Assembly: GCA_049719805.1 (NCBI GenBank)
Contig: JBNARF010000001.1
Location: 318,341 to 382,340, forward strand
Direction: 5' to 3'
DNA: 64,000 bases
Source of the DNA: Candidatus Hydrothermia bacterium
Lineage (GTDB): Bacteria; Hydrothermota; Hydrothermia; UBA1063
In this document: positions 50,407 to 60,729 of the stretch, one piece after another
Layout: every line of letters starts with the position of its first letter
Position numbering within the stretch: the first letter of the stretch is position 1
Notes under the pieces: model-generated
Told to the model about the DNA's origin: nothing
Seen by the model: only the letters and a program-made list of their open reading frames with translations
Database searches by the model: none
Translations under genes and position numbers: made by a program

Positions 50407-51660
50407 TTAACGAAAAAGCCTCAAAATATCAAAGAACACTATAACAACCATAAGAACAAGGAGCAGAATGAAACCTGCAAATTGTATGACTCTCTTTATG
50501 TTTTCTGGAAGCTCTCTTTTCGTAATACCCTCTACCAGATATACTAAGAAATGCCATCCATCGAGGGCGGGTATGGGCAGGAGATTAACAATACACAGGT
50601 TAATGGATATCAACCCTAAAAGGTAAAGAAGCTGAAAGGCTCCATAGCTGGTAGCGGTGTAAATTACCTTCCCTATCATAATAGGACCACCAATATTTGA
50701 GAGAGGCACTTTACCGCGGAATAGTTTAATTATATAAATTATGAAAATAAAAGTTATTTGTAAACTTCTGGAGACAGAGGTTACAAGTGCATCCAGAAAT
50801 CCGAGTCTTTTCCTTACTGATAATGCTGTAATTCCAATTCTCCCGAATTTTTCACCACTTGCCCCCTGTTCCAGCATTACTTTTAAAGACAAATTCAATG
50901 TATCTCTACCCCTCAGAACAGTAAGAGATATTTCTTTCCCGGGGTTTTCCCTTACTATATTGGTAAGTTCCTTCCATGTGTTTATCGTAATATTATTTAT
51001 CCTAAGGATAACATCTCCAGGTTTTAGACCCGCTTTTTGTGCTGGACTCCCTTTCTCAACTTTATTAACAATCGGGGGTATGAAGAACTCAATCCCTAAG
51101 GAATCAAAGTTGTTTCCGTGTATTACAAAATTTAACTCTTTTCCATCTCTTACAACACTTATTTGATGGATAGTGTCTTTAGAGAAGAAGTAATAAATGT
51201 CTTCAATGGTTTCAACTTTCTTTCCATCCACGGAGACAATGCTGTCTCCAGGAACTAACGGGGTGAATTTAGACTGAACTTCATATATGCGGGAATTAGG
51301 TAATGTATCATATCCAATAATTGAGTAGCCCAGAAGGAAGGCAAAAACAGCCAGTAATAAATTTGAAAAAGGACCTGCAAGTACAACGAAAATTTTCTTA
51401 TAAAAGGGCTGCGACCAAAAATCACCAGAGGATGCAGACTCTTTCTTCTCTTCGCCCTGCATTTTTACAAAACCACCGAAAGGGACGAGAGATAAGGAAT
51501 ATTTTGTACCGCTCCTATCTTTGTAAGTAAAAATTCGAGGGCCAAAGCCTATAGAAAATTCTTCAACGCCTATTCCAGAAATCTTACATGCGAAAAAATG
51601 TCCAAGTTCGTGAACTGTAATGAGAATACCAAGGAAAATAACAATTAGAATAAAAGTCAC
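50407..51660 (-). CDS. rseP: Intramembrane zinc metalloprotease RseP (M50) with two PDZ domains
   Basis: HELGHF, FSIGFGP, AGP..N, two PDZ regions and NLLPIPALDG; GTG start with SD. Confidence 0.95.
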   Translation of the reverse strand: MTFILIVIFLGILITVHELGHFFACKISGIGVEEFSIGFGPRIFTYKDRSGTKYSLSLVPFGGFVKMQGEEKKESASSGDFWSQPFYKKIFVVLAGPFSNLLLAVFAFLLGYSIIGYDTLPNSRIYEVQSKFTPLVPGDSIVSVDGKKVETIEDIYYFFSKDTIHQISVVRDGKELNFVIHGNNFDSLGIEFFIPPIVNKVEKGSPAQKAGLKPGDVILRINNITINTWKELTNIVRENPGKEISLTVLRGRDTLNLSLKVMLEQGASGEKFGRIGITALSVRKRLGFLDALVTSVSRSLQITFIFIIYIIKLFRGKVPLSNIGGPIMIGKVIYTATSYGAFQLLYLLGLISINLCIVNLLPIPALDGWHFLVYLVEGITKRELPENIKRVIQFAGFILLLVLMVVIVFFDILRLFR

Positions 51661-52304
51661 TGGTCCTCCTCGGAAATTACCAATGTTTTCCTCAAACGAG
51701 TTTTCCAGCCCATGAATCCGTCTTTAAGAAAATATGCGTTACCATAACCTTGCTTTTTCAACCATTCCAGAATGTTTCTATCTTCTTTTTCATCTCCCAC
51801 AAGCACGATAAGAACCTCTTTGGGTACATAAAGCCTTGAGAATTGTTTTTCAAAGTCTTGTTTATCGATCCATATAGACGATATAATATGCTCTCGGTCG
51901 TATGAGTTTTTATCCCTGAGATCCAGAATTAATATGAAGTTTCTTAATAGTTCATCATGCCTTAAGGATGTTTTTACAACATTGGCTTTTATTATGAGGA
52001 CAGCGGCTTTTCCATTATCAAAATTGACTCTTATTTGCTGAAATACAAGTCCAGAATAACCCTTAGTGTCGAAAATGGCTGTAATGGATATAGAGTCCCC
52101 TGGAGGAATAGGACCTGATATTTTGGTAGTATATGTACAACCGCAAGAAGGTTTAATGGACTTCACATTAAGAGTATCATTTTCATCATTGAAAAGAACA
52201 AAGGTGGCAGTTACTTTATCGCCTTCAGAGACCTGACCTGCATCAAAGACTTCGGGTTTAATAATAAGGGAAATTAAGGATAAAAAAATTAAATACAACA
52301 CCAT
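51657..52304 (-). CDS. DUF1573 Ig-like domain fused to a rhodanese-like domain lacking the catalytic Cys
   Basis: PSCGCT...IPPG.S; LDLR..Y...HI and L.DGF.GW rhodanese motifs; LVGD at the usual Cys loop. Confidence 0.72.
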   Translation of the reverse strand: MVLYLIFLSLISLIIKPEVFDAGQVSEGDKVTATFVLFNDENDTLNVKSIKPSCGCTYTTKISGPIPPGDSISITAIFDTKGYSGLVFQQIRVNFDNGKAAVLIIKANVVKTSLRHDELLRNFILILDLRDKNSYDREHIISSIWIDKQDFEKQFSRLYVPKEVLIVLVGDEKEDRNILEWLKKQGYGNAYFLKDGFMGWKTRLRKTLVISEEDQ

Positions 52305-52400: not shown

Positions 52401-55400
52401 ATGAAATGTTACAATTGTGGTTTTGAGAATCCAGAAAATGCAAATTTCTGCCAAAACTGCGGTGTTTCACTAAAATTCCTTTTGTTACCTGAAAAGAGAA
52501 TAGTTGCTGTAATGTTTGCGGACTTGGTAAATTTTACTAAAATTAGCGAGCATCGTGATCCTGAAGATGTTCTTAACCTCTTGAATACACTCTTTACTCG
52601 TATCGAGAAGATTGTAATTAAACATGATGGTACAATAGACAAATTTCTTGGCGATGGTGTTATGATTCTTTTCGGAACCCCTATTGCCCATGAAGATGAT
52701 GTGGAACGAGCCTTATATTGCGCAGAAGAAATCTTACTTGAAGTCAAAAATCTCAGAGAATTCTTGAATGAGGATGTAAAAATAAAAATATCTATTAATG
52801 TTGGTCCGGTGATTTGTGGCTTTTCAGGCGGGGCATATAAAAGAATGTATACCGTTATAGGGGATGTTGTAAATGTGGCAGAAAAGATAAACGATTTTGC
52901 AAGACCCAATACAATAATAGTTACGGAAAGAGTTATTGAGTACACTTCTCACATATTTGATTTTAAAAAATTGGGCAATATGAAAGTTCCAGGAAAAGAA
53001 GAACAGATAAATATATACGAACTCACAGGCTCAAGACCACGAGATATCATATATTCAAGCTTCAAAGGAAAGTTAATCCCCCTTGTAGGTAGAAAAGAGG
53101 AATTTAATAAAATAATACGTTCTTTAAGTGACTCTGTCTTGGGTTCCGGTCGCGCAGTTGTTTTGATAGGCGAAGCTGGTGTGGGGAAATCAAGAATGAA
53201 ATACGAAGTTAAAAAGTATTCTAGGGAAAACGCTGATGTTTTATTAATCGAAGCAGATTGTAAGAGTCAATATAAAGATTCCCCTTTCCAACCCGTCATT
53301 GATATTCTGCTACAAATTTTTAGTATAGAAACAGGTGACAATCCTGAAGTAAAACATAGCAAAATAAGAATAGTTTCAGAAAAATTTGGAATTGAAGAGG
53401 AAATCCTAAAACCAATAAAAAATCTCTTGGGACTCGAATCTGACTCGCGTCCTGAAATAAGGTTAGCTCTTGATGATGCTTTTGTTTCCTTAATAAATAA
53501 AATAAGCTTACTAAAACCCATTTTTATTACAGTGGAAGATATACAATGGATAGACGAGTCTTCCCTGGAAATTCTAAGAAGTTTACTGAAAAAACTTAAT
53601 AGCATGAAGGTTTTTCTATTATTAACATACAGGCCTTCAATAAGTATATTCTTGCCAGATTTTCCCTATCTTGAACCTATAACACTCAGTAATCTTTCAA
53701 AGAGTGAGACACAATCGATGATTGCAGAGCTACTTGAAGTTGAAGAGGTACCCCAAAACCTGGTCGACCTTGTTTTTAAGAAAACGGAGGGAAATCCCCT
53801 TTTTATTGAGGAACTTGTGGAGAGATTATACAAAGATAAAGTCTTCGAAATTACTGAGCAAGGTAAAATAGTTTTCGTCAGAAACCTTGAGGAGGTTTCA
53901 GTACCTGATAAAATAACCAGTTTATTTCTTCAAGAAATTGACAGGCTACCACCTCAAACTAAAAATGTTATTAAAGTGGCCTCTGTTATCGGCAGGGATT
54001 TCAACAGAGAAATACTCGAAAACTTAGTGCAGGTTGAAAATCTAGACTTTCACCTAAGAATCCTTGAAGAATCGGGACTTGTTTTCCGTGACAGGGAAAA
54101 GTCTAATAAATACTTGTTTAAACACTCATTTGTGCGCGATGCAGTATATGGTTTACTTCCTAAGAAAGAACTCAAAGAATTACATTTTAGAGTTGCCAAC
54201 TCTATTGAAACTTTGTACAGTGCCCATTTACAAGACTATTATGAAACCCTTGCTTATCATTATGAAGCCGCTGAAAAATTTGATAAAGCTTTTACCTATA
54301 ATATACAGACCGGAAAGAATTACCTGAAGTCCGGGATGCTGTACGCTGCAAGGAGTAAGTTTAAAAAGTCTGAAGAAATAATGGAAAAACACTTAAAACA
54401 AATGAAGGTACCTTTCGATGAAAATGAGCTCTTTGAATTATACACCAATCTGGCTCTTGTTTCATTAGATCTTGGTTTTCTCAAAGAGGCGAAAAACTAC
54501 TCAAGACTTTCAAAAGAAACTGCAATAAAGTTGAGGAATTGGCAGAAGTTACAGGATTCTATTGAATTGTCCATAAAAATAAACTCCATTAGCTCTGACT
54601 TAGAAGCACTAAGAAGTGATTTAGAGATAGAAAAAAACTACTTCAAAAAAGACTATTTACAAAATTTTGAAAACCTGTTGAATTTCATTAAAACGAGAGG
54701 CGAGACCGATAGTAGCAACTTGCAAGCAGTCATCGAGCAAATTAAATCTTTGCCGATTAACCTAAAAATTGCAATGGTTAAATTCGTAATTGAAAAAATA
54801 AAATACTCTGTGAATAAAGATCAACTCAAATTACTCTACGCTTTCATGGATGAAATCTCCTCTCAAGTAGAGGAACCTTTTTACTGGGATACACTCATGA
54901 TTAAAACCCAGGTTTTAACTTTGATGGGAAAACACGAAGAGGCACAGATCCAAATTTCCAAAATCAAGGAAGAACTCTCTCCTAATTTGAGTGATTATAA
55001 CCATGCTCAGCTATACATTATGGAAGCTATTTTAAAAAGGGAGCAAGGAGAATTTGCCGAGTGCCAACAACTTCTTTCGGTAGTAAGAAGAATGTCTGAG
55101 GATTTAAACCACGTCTTGCTTAGAGCTAACGCCCTGTTCGAAATGGCAAAGACGAGCTTCTTTTATCTAAACGAATACATTGAGGCACTGCAATATTTTT
55201 CCAGTGCTATTGAGAATTATTCCATCGGTGGAGATGTGCAAAATCGTGAAATGTCAAAATTGTTAGTCTGGCTGGGTAACATTGTTATAGGTAATTTACT
55301 AACTTATAACCAGTTACCGGAACAAATATTGCCATCCGAGATAGAAACGAGCGAGATACTAATAATCAATAGCAAAACAATCAATTTAATTACCGAATTA

Positions 55401-55964
55401 CTCTCGGGAAATTTTGATTATGCAATAAAACAGTTTTCAAACATTAACTTTAACCAGCTGGAAAGTGAGATACTGGTAGTCCTCGCATATGCAATACTTC
55501 TCTTCCTAATGCTAAGAAGCGATGAGATTCTTAAGGGAACTCTTGAAAGATTATTATTTGTGCTTTCCAAGAGAAATTCAAGGATTTTTGATAGCGCTCA
55601 CTATAGTGTAATATATCATTTTTACAATGGAATTGTTAAGGGCGTAAATCTATCCTCTACTGGAGATATACTTAAAAATGTCAAAAGTCAAAGTACTGAT
55701 TTGATAAGGGAAACAAGAATTCTGTCTGACACGATTTTATTCTTTTACGACAATTCCTTAAGAGAAGATGAGAAGCTCTTTTACCTAGAAGACCTTCTTA
55801 CTCAGGCCACTATTTTGAAGTCAGCGTTTTTGATTTTGCTTATTAAACTTGTAGAATACAAGTTGAGCTTCAATACTGAATCATCTGAGCGAATTATCAA
55901 TGAAACAAAACAAGTATTGAAAGCTTTTAAATTTGACAACGTTCTTAAAGTGATAGGCACTTGA
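52401..55964 (+). CDS. Zinc ribbon + class III adenylate cyclase + STAND/AAA ATPase + TPR-like repeats
   Basis: CxxC..CxxC; FADL, DKFLGDG, YTVIGDVVNVAEK; Walker A GEAGVGKS; Walker B VEDIQWID; GNPLFIEE; FKHSFVRD..Y; helical C-terminus. Confidence 0.9.
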   Translation: MKCYNCGFENPENANFCQNCGVSLKFLLLPEKRIVAVMFADLVNFTKISEHRDPEDVLNLLNTLFTRIEKIVIKHDGTIDKFLGDGVMILFGTPIAHEDDVERALYCAEEILLEVKNLREFLNEDVKIKISINVGPVICGFSGGAYKRMYTVIGDVVNVAEKINDFARPNTIIVTERVIEYTSHIFDFKKLGNMKVPGKEEQINIYELTGSRPRDIIYSSFKGKLIPLVGRKEEFNKIIRSLSDSVLGSGRAVVLIGEAGVGKSRMKYEVKKYSRENADVLLIEADCKSQYKDSPFQPVIDILLQIFSIETGDNPEVKHSKIRIVSEKFGIEEEILKPIKNLLGLESDSRPEIRLALDDAFVSLINKISLLKPIFITVEDIQWIDESSLEILRSLLKKLNSMKVFLLLTYRPSISIFLPDFPYLEPITLSNLSKSETQSMIAELLEVEEVPQNLVDLVFKKTEGNPLFIEELVERLYKDKVFEITEQGKIVFVRNLEEVSVPDKITSLFLQEIDRLPPQTKNVIKVASVIGRDFNREILENLVQVENLDFHLRILEESGLVFRDREKSNKYLFKHSFVRDAVYGLLPKKELKELHFRVANSIETLYSAHLQDYYETLAYHYEAAEKFDKAFTYNIQTGKNYLKSGMLYAARSKFKKSEEIMEKHLKQMKVPFDENELFELYTNLALVSLDLGFLKEAKNYSRLSKETAIKLRNWQKLQDSIELSIKINSISSDLEALRSDLEIEKNYFKKDYLQNFENLLNFIKTRGETDSSNLQAVIEQIKSLPINLKIAMVKFVIEKIKYSVNKDQLKLLYAFMDEISSQVEEPFYWDTLMIKTQVLTLMGKHEEAQIQISKIKEELSPNLSDYNHAQLYIMEAILKREQGEFAECQQLLSVVRRMSEDLNHVLLRANALFEMAKTSFFYLNEYIEALQYFSSAIENYSIGGDVQNREMSKLLVWLGNIVIGNLLTYNQLPEQILPSEIETSEILIINSKTINLITELLSGNFDYAIKQFSNINFNQLESEILVVLAYAILLFLMLRSDEILKGTLERLLFVLSKRNSRIFDSAHYSVIYHFYNGIVKGVNLSSTGDILKNVKSQSTDLIRETRILSDTILFFYDNSLREDEKLFYLEDLLTQATILKSAFLILLIKLVEYKLSFNTESSERIINETKQVLKAFKFDNVLKVIGT

Positions 55965-55989
55965 AAAGCAACGGAGTTTGAAATAAAAT
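55961..55989 (+). promoter_or_regulatory. Sigma70-type promoter for the HEAT/HD-GYP pair, leaderless
   Basis: TTGAAA-17-TAAAAT, exactly 7 nt before an ATG with no SD. Confidence 0.65.
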
Positions 55990-55996
55990 TATAACT

Positions 55997-57631
55997 ATGC
56001 AAAGTTTGATTAATTTATTAAATAAAACCTTCAGGGCATACAAAATTTACCCACCCGGACATGAAATTCCCAAATATTTCCTGAGACAATTGTGGGAGGT
56101 AATTAGAGAAACTTTAAAGAAGGCACCAGAAATTGTACTTGTCGTGGATAAGGGAAAATGTCTCGATGAAGATGGACGGGAGCTGTGGACGGGTGAGGAA
56201 AATGAAGATAATGTAGCCTGGGTTCTTTACAAAAACGGGATTAGAGGGTTATCAATCACTACTAATGTAACTCTCCTTGATCTTCAAAGTTTTTTTGAAT
56301 CAATTCAACACACAATAACATCAAAGGATAAGTACTTTTTGCTATCCCATTTGAGTCAGAACGACTTCAGTGGAATGGCCTTCGAATTTATCCCGGACTT
56401 TTTACAGGACCAGGATGTTTTAATCCCTGAGACTTATCAAGAATTTGTCAAGTTAAAAGAAAAAGAACCTAAAGCAGAACCTGTGGAAATGGAGGGTCAA
56501 ATTGAGGCATCAATTGAAATTCCCATTATAATCGAATCGAGAGAGGTGTTTACTGTAACGTCTGAGGAAGAAAGAATGATGAACGAAGAGACAGAGAAAG
56601 AGAGACAAACACCTCACCTTGAAAGATTTTTGAAATATCTGTTTATAATAATAGATAAGGCATCTGTGAAAGAAGCCCTTAGTTTTCTTAAGGCAATTGA
56701 AGAACTAATACTTTTCGAAATAAACAATGGAGAAGTTGGAAAGGCCGCAAAAATTCTACAAAATTTAAAGTTTTTCAAATATAATCTTGAAAATGCTGAA
56801 AAAGTTAAAATCGTGGATAATTTGATAAAACAATTTTCTGAACTTTCTCTGCTTGAAACTATCGTTAAAACCTTCGTGGAGACTAAACCTAAAGAGCTGG
56901 AAAATTTCTTAATTAATCTTGAACCCGAAGCGAGTTTAAATCTATTCAAGATTGCTGTAGATTTGCCCTCCAAACAGGCAAGACAGGTGCTTTTTAGGGC
57001 AATTATCGGAATTAAACCTGCAGGTCACGAGGATATTGTCAGTTATATTAGTAGAAATAGAAACGATGAAAAGATTCTTCTGGCAGGTCTGGAATTTATT
57101 GCTATGGCAAAAGTTCGAGAAGCAAGAGATTTGCTTCTTGAACTGAAGCTTAAGGATAATTCCGATGTTAAAAAGAATTTACTTGAAGCCATTGCTGCTA
57201 TAGAAGGTGATCTGACTCCCTTTTTTTACGACCCTAATCTTGAAGTAAGAATGACGACCTATATAGAGATGAAAAAGAATCCGCGTAAAGCTTTTGCAAA
57301 TTTAGTGGTTGAAAGGCTTAGAAGTCCTGAACTTTTCTATAAAATGGACCCCCTTGAGAAAAAGCAGTTTCTAAATATAATTCCAGAGTATCTTGACTAC
57401 CAGTCTGTTGAGAATGCCTTAAAAGAAATCATGAACCAAAACCTGTCTTTAATAGACAGATTGTCAAAATCAAAAAAATATTATGAAACTATGCAGTTTC
57501 TCATAAACTCCTTAGTTGAGTCGAGGAACAGAAAAGTTTATCTTTTGCTCATAGAAACCGTCAAAGCCACCAAAGACAACAAATTGAGGGAAATGTGTTC
57601 AGAAGCATTAAAACAGTTTAAGGAGCTTTAA
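55997..57631 (+). CDS. HEAT/ARM-like helical repeat protein with an uncharacterised N-terminal domain
   Basis: All-helical C-terminal half with HEAT-like motifs (DNSDVKKNLLEAI, DPNLEVR, KLREMCSEAL); N-terminal KIYPPGH motif. Confidence 0.65.
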   Translation: MQSLINLLNKTFRAYKIYPPGHEIPKYFLRQLWEVIRETLKKAPEIVLVVDKGKCLDEDGRELWTGEENEDNVAWVLYKNGIRGLSITTNVTLLDLQSFFESIQHTITSKDKYFLLSHLSQNDFSGMAFEFIPDFLQDQDVLIPETYQEFVKLKEKEPKAEPVEMEGQIEASIEIPIIIESREVFTVTSEEERMMNEETEKERQTPHLERFLKYLFIIIDKASVKEALSFLKAIEELILFEINNGEVGKAAKILQNLKFFKYNLENAEKVKIVDNLIKQFSELSLLETIVKTFVETKPKELENFLINLEPEASLNLFKIAVDLPSKQARQVLFRAIIGIKPAGHEDIVSYISRNRNDEKILLAGLEFIAMAKVREARDLLLELKLKDNSDVKKNLLEAIAAIEGDLTPFFYDPNLEVRMTTYIEMKKNPRKAFANLVVERLRSPELFYKMDPLEKKQFLNIIPEYLDYQSVENALKEIMNQNLSLIDRLSKSKKYYETMQFLINSLVESRNRKVYLLLIETVKATKDNKLREMCSEALKQFKEL

Positions 57632-59004
57632 TGATGAATTTACAAAACGAAAAATATCAAAATCAGTTGCTAACCTCTTTTTTACAAGCACTTAATAACG
57701 TAAAACTTTATGGAATTAAGCATCCTGTTTCTGAAAAGTCATTAAGGGAATTTAAAGAAAGTATTGATTTAGTTTTGAATGAGCTCTCAGAATTTTCTAT
57801 TAGCTTCAGAGGATGGCACACTTATATTTGTGGTGAAAGAATAAAGATTTCTACGATTAATTTCCCCATTATAAAGCAAATAGTCGAGCTATTTCAGTCT
57901 AAGAATCTGGGAGGTTTCAGAATAAGCAGAGGAATTCATGACGATGACTTAGCACTATTTCTCACTTTATTCAACCAGGAAAGCTTCACAGGAGAAACTA
58001 TAGCTCAAAAACTTATTGAAAAGGGGGTCACGTCAATAAAGATTTTACCGGTGATTGCTCAACCCACAGAAGTTTTAGATCCTAAAAAGAGAGTTAAACA
58101 AGTTTACTTTGAAACTATAAATTTAGTCAAAACCCTTACCACTCAGAAAAGTTTCCAAAAAAGTAATTTTACGAAGTTCACAGTGGGTGTCTTATACCTT
58201 ATCGACACACTGAAAACTTCTGAAAGCCTATTACTGGGTCTTACTGTTGTTAAAAATTACGACGATTTTCTGTATAACCATTCAGTTAATACAGCTGTGC
58301 TCTCACTTTCGCTGGGTGTAAGAATTGGTCTGAAGAGTAAAGAACTTTTGAAACTTGGACAGGCTGCCCTTTTACATGACATTGGTATGGTTGACATTCC
58401 GAGGGATATTTTAAAGAAAGAAACATTATTGACTGAGGACGAGTGGAGTATGATAAAGACACATCCAATCAGCGGTGTCAAGATCACGATGGATCTCATG
58501 GGACTTTCAGAAGAAAGTGCCCAGGTACTTCTTGCCATATTAGAACATCAAAAAGGCTTCGATGGTTCGGGATATCCCGAATTTATTAAAAATTCTAAGA
58601 TTTCCCTCTTTGCTCGTATTATCCAGATAGCAGACTTCTATGACGCAGTAACTACCCCAAAATTTCACAATCCGGTTCCTATGTCACCGGCTGAGGCGAT
58701 AGCATATCTCGTCAAACATGCAGGGAAGTTGTTCGACCCTCTATTATCAAAGTACTTTGTTAATTTACTCGGAGTATATCCACTTGGAACCCTCGTTTTT
58801 CTATCGACCGGGGAATGGGGTTTGGTTATTGGACAACCTCAGGATCCAGAAAAAATACATAAACCTTTAGTATTAATAATTAAAAATTCGGAAGGTAAAG
58901 ATATACCTCATAAGACCCTGGACCTGAGTCAGTCTGAAATTGAGATCGTTAGAGCAGATTCTCCCTGGAAATTTGGAATTGATCCTGCAGAATACCTTAT
59001 TTAG
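57631..59004 (+). CDS. HD-GYP domain protein (cyclic dinucleotide phosphodiesterase family)
   Basis: NHSVN, LLHDIG, KTHP, EHQKGFDGSGYP and IADFYDA motifs; C-terminal GVYPLGTLV.LSTGE; start overlaps the upstream stop. Confidence 0.9.
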   Translation: MMNLQNEKYQNQLLTSFLQALNNVKLYGIKHPVSEKSLREFKESIDLVLNELSEFSISFRGWHTYICGERIKISTINFPIIKQIVELFQSKNLGGFRISRGIHDDDLALFLTLFNQESFTGETIAQKLIEKGVTSIKILPVIAQPTEVLDPKKRVKQVYFETINLVKTLTTQKSFQKSNFTKFTVGVLYLIDTLKTSESLLLGLTVVKNYDDFLYNHSVNTAVLSLSLGVRIGLKSKELLKLGQAALLHDIGMVDIPRDILKKETLLTEDEWSMIKTHPISGVKITMDLMGLSEESAQVLLAILEHQKGFDGSGYPEFIKNSKISLFARIIQIADFYDAVTTPKFHNPVPMSPAEAIAYLVKHAGKLFDPLLSKYFVNLLGVYPLGTLVFLSTGEWGLVIGQPQDPEKIHKPLVLIIKNSEGKDIPHKTLDLSQSEIEIVRADSPWKFGIDPAEYLI

Positions 59005-60729
59005 TTAACTACGCTTAATCTTTAGAATATCAAAGATTTTTTCCAAAGGGGATGTGTTGATAACATCCTGAGGAGAGAGCCATGCTCTCCTTGCTTGACC
59101 GATTCCGAGTCTAATCATACTAAGTTGACCAATCTGGTGAGCGTCAGTGTTTATAGCGAACAACACTCCCTTTTCCTTTCCCTTTCTAGCGTTAATATCA
59201 TTAAAATCAAGCCTCTCGTAGTATGAGTTTATTTCTATAAAGGTTTTAGTCTCTACAGCTTTTTCAATAATTTTATCTATATCTACATTATATCCTTCTC
59301 TTTGTCCTATTAATCTCCCAGTGGGATGTCCAATAATGGTTACATACGGATTCTCCATGGCCTTAATAATTCGAGCCGTGGCGTCCTCATTTTTCTTCCA
59401 TATGTGAATAGAAGCTATAACAAAGTCAAGTTCTTTCAAAACTTCATCCGGATAATCAAGGCTACCATCCTGTAAAATGTCCACTTCCATACCTTTAAGC
59501 AGTCTGAACCTTTTGAATTTCTGGTTTAACCTATCAATTTCTTTATTTCGTTCCCTCAATTCTTCAACTTCAAGTCCACCCGCATATTTCACTGATCGGG
59601 AGTGGTCACATATTCCTACGTATTCGTATCCCATTTGCATTGCATATTGTGCTATTTCCTCTAAAGATGACGTACCATCAGAAAAATCAGAGTGCATATG
59701 TAAATCACCTTTTAATTCATCATATCCTATTATTTTTGGAAGTTTTCCTTCTAAAGCTGCTTCTATCTCTCCCTGATCTTCTCTCATTTCCGGCGGTATC
59801 CAGGGGAGACCAACAGCCTTATAGACATCCTCTTCCTCTTTTCCTGCAATATACGTGTCTTCTTTAAAAACACCATATTCTGATATTTTTAAACCAAGAT
59901 TCTTAGCTATGCTTCTAAGTTTAACGTTGTGCGCTTTCGAACCTGTGAAATATTGTAACGCCGCTCCCCATGATTCTCTTGGAACTACCCGCATATCCAC
60001 TTGATATTTATCTTCCATAATGCATGACCCTTTGGTTTCACCAGATGCAAGTATTTCTGTTACACCAGGATATTTCGTAAAATAATCAATGATCTCAGTG
60101 CCGTTTTCTCCTACCACAAGTATATCCAGGTCACCTACCGTTTCTTTCATTCGCCTATAAGAACCGCAAGGTGAAATAAGCTCCACTTTTCCGGATTTCT
60201 TCATATATTCAACAATATCCTCTACTATATTGACCGCAACTCCAAGGGGTATCCTTTCTTGCCCCTTGAAATAAAGCTCTAATCCGCGTTTAATGTTTTC
60301 AATCTTTTTCTCGCCCATTCCCGGAAGAGTTAAAAGGCGGGGGTCGTCTAGGATTTTCATGAATTCTTCTGTGGTTGTAACTTTGAATTTATCATAAATT
60401 TGCCTCAAAGTGCGAGGTCCGAGTCCCTGAACTTCCATAAGCTTTAGAAGGTCCCTGGGAACTTGAGACATCACCTCTTCATATTTTTCAAAAGTACCTG
60501 TTTCAATGAATTGAACGATTTTTTTTGCTATACCCTCTCCTATGCCTGGTATTCTCTCCAATCCTTCGACACCTTCCTTTAAGTAAATTTCTTTAACATC
60601 AGTGGGAAGCTCATCGAGCACCCTTGCAACTTTTTGGTATGCTCTTACTTTAAAAGGGTTTTCACCCAGAAAATCTAGAGCATTTGCTAATTCCTCAAAC
60701 TTCTTCGCCAAAATCTTATTTATTTTCAT
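59005..60729 (-). CDS. polX: DNA polymerase X / PHP 3'-5' exonuclease
   Basis: GENPFKVRAY, HhH motifs, GSYRR, GDLD, YFTGSKAHN; PHP motifs DLHMHS, DHS, HPTGR and NTDAH. Confidence 0.96.
   Translation of the reverse strand: MKINKILAKKFEELANALDFLGENPFKVRAYQKVARVLDELPTDVKEIYLKEGVEGLERIPGIGEGIAKKIVQFIETGTFEKYEEVMSQVPRDLLKLMEVQGLGPRTLRQIYDKFKVTTTEEFMKILDDPRLLTLPGMGEKKIENIKRGLELYFKGQERIPLGVAVNIVEDIVEYMKKSGKVELISPCGSYRRMKETVGDLDILVVGENGTEIIDYFTKYPGVTEILASGETKGSCIMEDKYQVDMRVVPRESWGAALQYFTGSKAHNVKLRSIAKNLGLKISEYGVFKEDTYIAGKEEEDVYKAVGLPWIPPEMREDQGEIEAALEGKLPKIIGYDELKGDLHMHSDFSDGTSSLEEIAQYAMQMGYEYVGICDHSRSVKYAGGLEVEELRERNKEIDRLNQKFKRFRLLKGMEVDILQDGSLDYPDEVLKELDFVIASIHIWKKNEDATARIIKAMENPYVTIIGHPTGRLIGQREGYNVDIDKIIEKAVETKTFIEINSYYERLDFNDINARKGKEKGVLFAINTDAHQIGQLSMIRLGIGQARRAWLSPQDVINTSPLEKIFDILKIKRS

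Follow-up and report, generated by a model that had tools for sequence, protein, structure and literature searches.

In a 64,000-nucleotide (nt) stretch of DNA from a Candidatus Hydrothermia bacterium (contig JBNARF010000001.1, positions 318,341 to 382,340; hereafter the window, with all coordinates counted from its first letter), two adjacent genes on the + strand both open with one ancient, uncatalogued alpha/beta domain of approximately 130 residues, here termed the N-domain. Gene A (55997-57631) encodes a protein of 544 amino acids (aa) comprising the N-domain, an acidic linker, and a HEAT-like solenoid, and gene B (57631-59004) encodes a protein of 457 aa comprising the N-domain, two long helices, an HD-GYP domain, and a C-terminal beta-rich domain. 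The A-B system is widespread, not rare, and at a probability that we put at about 0.55 the two proteins are subunits of a conserved cyclic-nucleotide signaling unit in which the N-domains join A to B and the solenoid controls the phosphodiesterase. The pair had been singled out in an initial annotation, and the translational overlap described there is present: the TAA of A (57629-57631) and the ATG of B (57631-57633) have one base in common, and an AGGAG at 57621-57625 stands six bases 5' of that ATG, so that the AGGAG and the TAATG overlap together span 57621-57633 of the + strand. The coordinates of both genes were confirmed.

The relationship between the N-termini of A and B, also proposed in the initial annotation, is borne out by comparison of profile hidden Markov models and by predicted structures, not by pairwise BLASTP. 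When the N-termini of 11 A and 11 B orthologues were compared with hhalign, the probability was 90.9 (E 1.1e-6, 98 columns), in the register first suggested. A second comparison used lineages outside the window's order and non-identical sequences that were cut without the domain profile, namely residues 1-190 from A-like genes that were selected by their position and, from the neighboring genes, the 155 residues before the HD-GYP linker. In this comparison, 69 A-type and 69 B-type N-termini aligned over 131 columns with a probability of 98.4% (E 6.9e-15), compared to 0.9% for the control with the B alignment reversed and 0.2% for the control with the HD-GYP region. When relatives were searched in six frames with A as the query, the B orthologue was matched at its N-terminus in two genomes (E 7e-5 and 9e-5), both at 25% identity over A residues 10-144.

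The AlphaFold2 models of the two N-domains have a common order of helices (H) and strands (E), H-H-E-E-(E)-H-E-H-H-E, at a predicted local distance difference test (pLDDT) score of about 85-90. The N-domain of A (residues 1-131; 55997-56389, + strand) is an A-type copy with conserved K16, Y18, H22, L29, G60, and G84 and with the elements H2-17, H23-42, E45-51, E54-56, E62-65, H73-79, E82-88, H93-108, H114-121, and E127-131. The B-type copy (residues 7-140 of B; 57649-58050, + strand) carries K25, Y27, H31, and G68 and contains H7-27, H32-51, E54-60, E63-66, H78-90, E95-99, H104-114, H121-130, and E136-139. ESM Atlas models of both N-termini matched the N-termini of HEAT_2 clusters with template modeling (TM) scores of 0.80-0.91, and the model of the B N-terminus also matched HD_5 clusters (TM 0.81-0.88). 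No Pfam family lay on the aligned part of these Atlas matches for either N-terminus.

The absence of a name for this domain, a further claim of the initial annotation, held in the Pfam, NCBIfam, and Protein Data Bank (PDB) sequence libraries. Neither Pfam nor NCBIfam matched residues 1-140 of A or B, and the 22 orthologous N-termini (11 A, 11 B) yielded no plausible family at E up to 10. A 29-sequence N-domain profile found no credible match among PDB sequences, the matches being short and implausible (a designed barrel, a glycosyltransferase, DivIVA). Full-text searches of literature outside subscription journals turned up no account of either the domain or the gene pair. The words HEAT, TPR, and AAA are absent from the HD-GYP census of Galperin and Chou (bioRxiv 10.1101/2021.11.05.467447), and the sections of that census consulted describe neither the domain nor the pair. 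HD-GYP enzymes with N-terminal regulatory domains are already known; the domain itself, and a dedicated partner sharing the N-domain of the enzyme, appear to be undescribed. A STAS/SpoIIAA-like core was considered in passing, on the basis of the order of strands and helices and of one Pfam hit (E 0.087) in one of 11 members. Identity with DUF3391 (PF11871) was rejected on the basis of profile matches and topology. PF11871 matched none of the 11 B or 11 A N-termini at E up to 10, and DUF3391 was missing from Pfam scans of 89 N-domain representatives at E up to 1e-3, 1e-5, or 1e-6. A six-frame PF11871 search of 41 WOR-3 genomes was also blank, as were the control genomes, and the Atlas feature score to the DUF3391 cluster, 0.77, was under the level that counts. 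DUF3391 has four strands followed by two long helices (according to bioRxiv 10.1101/2021.11.05.467447), whereas the N-domain opens with two long helices followed by beta-alpha units (H-H-E-E-H-E-H-H-E in the B model).

Gene A was found in 11 of 60 relatives, including all seven from family f1 and all four from family f2, and in none of the 49 from ten other families of the class. Within the window's order, B lies directly after A in each of the 11 relatives that have A. Among short loci from other WOR-3 families (L027-L047), an open reading frame (ORF) with the N-domain followed the A-like gene immediately in 20 of 21, and the remaining locus was cut at its end. In 18 extended loci from other WOR-3 families, all 19 A-like genes were followed by an N-domain-HD-GYP gene of 447-496 aa that overlapped or abutted them. 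A metagenome scan queried with eight closely related non-WOR-3 sequences returned 80 loci, which represent one subfamily. Sixty-eight of these had at least 400 nt downstream, and the N-domain ORF came immediately next in 67; in the other (L082), it lay 434 nt past a shortened A ORF. An HD-GYP domain was found in that ORF in all 53 metagenome loci with at least 1600 nt downstream. Because related genomes are not independent samples and the metagenome loci all represent a single subfamily, the pair counts indicate consistency and are not a statistic. Conserved adjacency, a test proposed in the initial annotation, was seen in every locus with room for a second gene, and single-chain fusions of the two are also known (see below). 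The genes flanking the pair are mostly unrelated housekeeping genes (thiolase, ThiD/ThiN, DUF401, PFOR), which indicates that the A-B pair is the unit.

In a locus of WOR-3 family f27 (L049), the pair is followed by a pterin-binding (FolP-like) gene and a DAC/CdaA cyclic di-AMP (c-di-AMP) synthase gene, both identified with Pfam, and ORFs of 392-395 and 251 aa follow the pair in L049, L051, L055, L056, and L065 of the same family. Directly downstream of one metagenome A-B pair (L097:9640-11952) is a gene for a GAF-MshEN-T2SSE ATPase; MshEN binds cyclic di-GMP (c-di-GMP). In L158 (1131-6734) and L161 (6210-11518), an N-domain-HEAT gene of about 679 aa is followed by a GMP synthase gene (guaA) and a GAF-GGDEF gene, an order that is conserved in two genera.

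A profile built from 18 A and B N-termini was searched exhaustively; 1419 representative clusters matched at E up to 1e-3, and the number fell to 53 when the limit was set at 1e-10. A word-indexed homologue search with residues 1-150 of B was too insensitive, recovering only B and one close relative. Atlas rows name Thermodesulfobacteriota, Acidobacteriota, Nitrospirota, Gemmatimonadota, Myxococcota, Bdellovibrionota, and others, besides WOR-3. Within WOR-3, the domain profile matched 112 of 272 genomes and 47 of 110 genera; the window's own genome contains two copies only, those of A and B.

Architectures were assigned with Pfam for 89 of the best 150 representatives, with domain copies mapped by hmmsearch. 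HEAT families alone were present in 41 of the 89, mostly with one N-terminal copy of the domain as in A and some with two, and HEAT_2 together with other domains in a further 29. Twenty-three representatives, mostly of about 1400 aa, combined GGDEF and AAA_16 with a tandem pair of N-domains, located around residues 665 and 840, and 22 of these ended in HEAT_2. Two others were of the same tandem AAA_16 type without GGDEF and may be truncated. Four representatives contained HD or HD_5 only, as in the N-domain-HD-GYP arrangement of B, while five (P0047, P0043, P0124, P0127, P0133) contained the N-domain, HEAT, a second N-domain, and HD in a single chain, and one (P0088) was a fusion with the reverse order. 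No Pfam family was found in 12. The remaining architecture of note, P0140, a 952-aa hypothetical protein from a Deltaproteobacteria metagenome-assembled genome, contains the N-domain, HEAT, cNMP-binding, and PilZ domains (one of 89) and ties the module to receptors of cyclic mononucleotides and of c-di-GMP. In a tree of 92 domain copies (quick IQ-TREE search, SH-aLRT support only), B-type copies and the second copies of the fusions fell on one side of a branch (95*), A-type copies grouped with the first copies of the fusions (98*), and the tandem copies of the GGDEF-STAND proteins formed a third group beside the A-type (94). The two copies from the window fell in the A-type (98*) and B-type (95*) groups. 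This grouping of first and second fusion copies indicates that the A/B split is old and that the fusions are true A-B fusions.

Protein B is an HD-GYP protein, as initially annotated, on the basis of Pfam HD_5, the HD dyad, and the GYP motif. It scored 108.5 bits against HD_5 (PF13487; E 4e-31, cut-off 27.2) and 58.8 bits against HD (PF01966; cut-off 22), with the catalytic domain at residues 207-370 (58249-58740, + strand). In searches of the PDB, the best sequence match of this domain was 4MCW (PmGH; E 5e-20, residues 165-378), and 5Z7C was also matched (E 5e-18). LLHDIG (H249, D250) and DGSGYP (G314, Y315, P316) are invariant in all 11 B orthologues. Where HD-GYP proteins canonically have HHExhDGxGYP, however, B reads EHQKGFDGSGYP, so that the full HHE motif is not present, and its E305, H306, and Q307 are invariant in the 11 orthologues of the window's order. 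The HH before GYP is kept by all 74 aligned B-like proteins of other lineages. In addition, B reads KFHN for RxY[K/R] and KET for KPG and lacks the c-di-GMP-specific motif set. Its orthologues read RFYN or RIHN (f1) or RVYS (f2) at the specificity motif, the metagenome B-like set has RxYR with one exception (L088), and 15 of 19 other WOR-3 B-like proteins have RxYQ. According to the census (bioRxiv 10.1101/2021.11.05.467447), both His residues of the full HHExh(D/N)GxGYP motif are metal ligands, RxY[K/R] and KPG are the motifs for c-di-GMP specificity, and RxxQ and RxxN move specificity towards cGAMP. Judged from the sequences, B in the window's lineage has lost the second His of HHE and the Lys/Arg of RxY[K/R], and it may act on a nucleotide other than c-di-GMP or mainly as a regulator.

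The closest structural counterpart of B is Bd1817 (PDB 3TM8), the top structural match of the B model (Z 9.2, root-mean-square deviation (rmsd) 3.5, 173 aligned, residues 74-339; Foldseek E 5e-5). Like B, the DUF3391-HD-GYP proteins Bd1817 and PA4108 have a cytoplasmic N-terminal domain of about 120-140 residues, long connecting helices, and an HD-GYP domain. Their N-terminal domain is DUF3391, however, and that of B is not, with the N-domain profile missing 3TM8 at E up to 10; in addition, no paralogous partner gene is described for the Bd1817 family in the sections of bioRxiv 10.1101/2021.11.05.467447 consulted. PmGH of Persephonella marina (GAF-HD-GYP; 4MCW) resembles B in having sensor and enzyme in one chain, but its sensor is a GAF domain, not the unnamed N-domain, and its HHE, KPG, and RxYK motifs are complete where B reads EHQ, KET, and KFHN. 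The C-terminal beta-rich domain of B (residues 385-457; 58783-59001, + strand) is strongly conserved within the window's order, with YPLGTLVFL.TGEWG.V.GQ ... SPWK.GIDPA.Y kept in all 11 orthologues. By description, it recalls the unannotated barrel-like C-terminal domain of Leptospira DUF3391-HD-GYP proteins reported in PMC12943098.

The initial description of A as a HEAT-repeat protein stands as far as the model shows a helical solenoid, but the Pfam HEAT_2 (PF13646) match of the window's own A is below cut-off (E 0.012, 16.4 bits, cut-off 27.7); relatives match HEAT_2 above cut-off. The HEAT/ARM-like alpha-solenoid occupies residues 207-544 of the AlphaFold2 model (56615-57628, + strand), mostly at pLDDT >90. 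Its best structural match is the condensin HEAT subunit 6yvu_D (Z 14.3, rmsd 5.8, 299 aligned), with the caveat that helical repeats easily attain Z values of this size. Between the N-domain and the solenoid is an acidic linker (residues 136-205; 56402-56611, + strand) with pLDDT <50, in which P144 E145 T146, E157 P158, R182 E183 V184, and E191 E192 are nonetheless invariant in the order. A similar stretch, 'L.LTP.E...LR.MV.EEE', is seen in the consensus of distant A-like proteins. The linker may be a docking segment.

Immediately upstream of the pair is gene C (52401-55964, + strand), which encodes a protein of 1187 aa with a zinc ribbon (residues 2-25), a class III cyclase (34-206; 52500-53018), an AAA_16 STAND NTPase (227-404; 53079-53612), and a TPR-like C-terminal half; the ORFs C, A, and B, all on the + strand, occupy 52401-59004. 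Pfam scores were 99.1 bits for Guanylate_cyc (E 3e-28, cut-off 21.9), 67.1 bits for AAA_16 (E 3.5e-18, cut-off 32.6), E 4e-5 for DZR, and, at residues 876-940 (55026-55220), 27 bits for TPR_12 (E 5e-6), which is below its cut-off of 30.1. C thus qualifies as a class III cyclase and STAND NTPase, and FAD..FT and GD are kept in four full-length orthologues. We take these motifs to hold the two metal-binding Asp residues. C also keeps a Lys/Asp pair, which presumably points to ATP as the substrate; in family f1, a Lys stands in place of what we take to be the Arg of the N-x-A-x-R motif. The nearest named model for C is TOMM_kin_cyc (TIGR03903), matched at residues 52-640 with E 6e-75. The order of cyclase, AAA_16, and TPR is alike, but the score of 252.9 is far below the cut-off of 705.75, C has no kinase domain, and the family description makes no link to an N-domain-HEAT and HD-GYP pair. 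The GGDEF-AAA_16-(N-domain x2)-HEAT proteins of about 1400 aa have in one chain what C and A have in two; however, their cyclase is GGDEF and not class III, they carry two A-related tandem N-domains, and they contain no HD-GYP domain. No published study of these proteins was found, and they are known as database sequences only.

In each of the 11 relatives of the order, an ORF on the same strand stops shortly before A begins. Where the flank is long enough, this ORF is a full-length C orthologue directly upstream of A (L069, L070, L073, L076) or a cut one (L072). The gap between C and A is 32 nt in the window (55965-55996, + strand) and 15-22 nt in four relatives. The initial annotation gave the pair its own promoter, a claim that was not supported: the promoter-like pair TTGAAA-17-TAAAAT at 55961-55989 is in the C-A gap, but such matches occur at shuffle frequency (34 in the region compared to 27.7 +/- 7.0 in shuffles), C ends 32 nt upstream, and the order C-A-B is kept in the relatives of the order. 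An independent start for A is no more likely than co-transcription with C. The two-gene unit originally described is a conserved pair, but here it does not stand alone: three genes form a block that begins with C and ends with the pair.

Under the preferred reading, B would be the enzyme, an HD-GYP phosphodiesterase, and A a non-catalytic HEAT-solenoid partner. The two N-domains would bring A and B together, either directly or on a common partner, and the solenoid of A would control, localize, or scaffold the phosphodiesterase. In the window's order, the pair would be joined to the upstream C, making the block a signal-gated cyclase, adaptor, and hydrolase. This reading builds on what is directly observed, namely the homology of the N-domains, the adjacency, the fusions, the domain make-up, and the motif states. 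Strict A-then-B adjacency and five single-chain fusions are expected of proteins working as one complex, and the N-domain module is repeatedly associated with enzymes making, breaking, or binding cyclic (di)nucleotides. From this we infer the physical binding of A and B with its contact surfaces, pairing through the shared domain (heterodimerization), and the substrate. The one complex prediction for the two N-domains, run without controls, scored 0.28, 0.39, and 0.23, with a median under the mark of 0.32, and it weighs neither for nor against binding.

Several observations weigh against the proposed unit. Pairwise BLASTP of A against B in the window found nothing significant, and the stretch quoted in the initial annotation has an E value of 14. 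PDB structure searches used full-length models of A and B, and their matches were dominated by the HD-GYP helices and the solenoid; the N-domain was thus barely probed, and it may be linked to a known fold. With Q307 at the position of the second His, B may have little or no catalytic activity. The tandem N-domains of the GGDEF-STAND proteins form their own clade, which indicates a separate duplication and makes them no model of an A:B heterodimer. N-domain-HEAT genes without an N-domain-HD-GYP neighbor occur in L158-L162, so that the domain has no need of a B-type paralogue and may bind something else. In addition, among 106 loci outside the window's order that were searched with C-derived profiles, only three (L077, L159, L160) contain a gene that combines the cyclase with the STAND core, which indicates that the three-gene C-A-B form is lineage-specific. 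In L077, from a metagenome, a REC-GGDEF gene, A, and B are followed by a 1281-aa zinc-ribbon-cyclase-AAA_16-TPR gene. In L159 (4372-10370) and L160 (4457-10474), both of WOR-3 family f27, a cyclase-AAA_16-TPR gene (1058 aa), a cyclase-only gene (214-215 aa), and an N-domain-HEAT gene (724-731 aa) stand in a row without HD-GYP, a second kind of linkage between cyclase-STAND and N-domain-HEAT genes. These three loci and the 23 GGDEF-AAA_16 fusions indicate that the tie between STAND-type cyclases and N-domain-HEAT proteins is recurring, not obligatory. Among the other scanned loci, an ORF with the cyclase alone is present in L142 and one with the STAND core alone in L161, while the protein of L066 is itself of the GGDEF-STAND-N-domain type.

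The main rival to the two-subunit reading is that A and B are parallel sensors, in which the binding partner of the N-domain is a small ligand or a third protein, such as a STAND cyclase, and A and B respond to it separately, without touching each other through the domain. This is a possible but rather unlikely arrangement. It is favored by the N-domain-HEAT genes that lack a B neighbor, which lie beside a cyclase-STAND gene (L159, L160), beside guaA and GAF-GGDEF genes (L158, L161), or, in L163, opposite a stand-alone HD-GYP gene without the N-domain. In the GGDEF-AAA_16 proteins, the domain comes after the STAND core in the same chain, and the conserved polar residues of the domain (Y, H, D/G; W/E in the A-type) are candidates for the lining of a pocket. 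However, no match suggests a ligand, and strict adjacency, the usual stop/start overlap, and the five single-chain fusions suggest one complex.

HEAT solenoids are general protein-binding surfaces, and the solenoid is the best-predicted part of A. It could therefore be the solenoid that binds B, whether as an inhibitor, as a chaperone, or for localization, leaving the N-domain as a relic of duplication or with another role such as homodimerization; the N-terminal domains of HD-GYP enzymes are thought to aid dimer formation (bioRxiv 10.1101/2021.11.05.467447). We consider this reading improbable: selection has kept the A-type and the B-type domain in all pairs examined, which suggests a role tied to the pair itself.

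For the window's order, the two-subunit reading could be taken further to a 'make, hold, break' module, self-contained and built by recruitment of the ancient pair, in which C, as a STAND-gated class III cyclase, would make a nucleotide signal, A would tether cyclase and hydrolase, and B, with HHE changed to HQK, RxYK to RxYN/RxYS, and KPG lost, would be re-tuned to break that signal, something other than c-di-GMP. Candidates for the signal would be 3'3'-cGAMP and even a cyclic mononucleotide, although to our knowledge no HD-GYP enzyme is known to hydrolyze cyclic mononucleotides. This extension is speculative and doubtful as a whole.

Much less likely again is that C-A-B is an anti-phage defense system of the Pycsar kind, in which the cyclase signal switches on an effector. 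STAND NTPases are common in defense, and the cyclase of C matched PycC models of PADLOC (best E 6.9e-20), but PycC is itself a member of the class III cyclase superfamily, and the match to Pfam Guanylate_cyc is the stronger one (3e-28). A and B had no PADLOC match at E up to 0.01, and B would hydrolyze signals and is no killing effector. Furthermore, all 11 relatives of the order share the synteny of the block, which in f1 extends to the PolX and chain-length genes on its flanks, and the A-B pair usually lies among housekeeping genes. The defense reading was rejected on the PADLOC results and the synteny; a Pycsar system would pair a PycC cyclase with an adjacent cNMP-activated effector (transmembrane or TIR). 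Finally, a chance or compositional resemblance of the two N-termini with meaningless adjacency, for which the silent pairwise BLASTP and the AT-rich genome (35-38% G+C in the region) could be cited, is refuted by the controlled hhalign comparison, the genome-search cross-match, the matching predicted structures, and the adjacency in every locus with room, and its likelihood is negligible.

HD-GYP proteins are the less understood class of c-di-GMP/cGAMP phosphodiesterases, and their control is largely open. If the two-subunit reading is correct, a co-inherited HEAT-repeat partner that carries the enzyme's own N-domain would be a new means of regulating HD-GYP enzymes, present in many phyla, and the three-gene form with its altered specificity motifs would provide a compact test case for the wiring of cyclase, adaptor, and hydrolase. 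The domain merits a family entry, which would annotate approximately a thousand protein clusters now listed as hypothetical or merely as 'HEAT repeat' and would join the GGDEF-STAND proteins of about 1400 aa, the HD-GYP enzymes, and the cNMP-binding/PilZ protein in one signaling theme.

Around the block, a PolX-type protein (574 aa; DNA polymerase beta thumb and palm, HhH, and PHP domains) is encoded on the - strand at 59005-60729 and converges on B, with this synteny kept in family f1, and a DUF1573 Ig-like and rhodanese protein is encoded on the - strand at 51657-52304, divergent from C. The genome of the window is 1.66 Mb in 3 contigs and contains 13 GGDEF, 10 HD_5, and 2 class III cyclase ORFs. 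Five of the GGDEF ORFs are 1058-1199 aa long, and none of the five contains the N-domain. The second class III cyclase ORF (1109 aa; G000:C2:362410-364685) has a 1121-aa GGDEF ORF as its divergent neighbor. One of the ten HD_5 matches (G000:C2:378394-378888) has an in-frame TAA within the match and may represent either a disrupted HD-GYP gene or a pair of genes.

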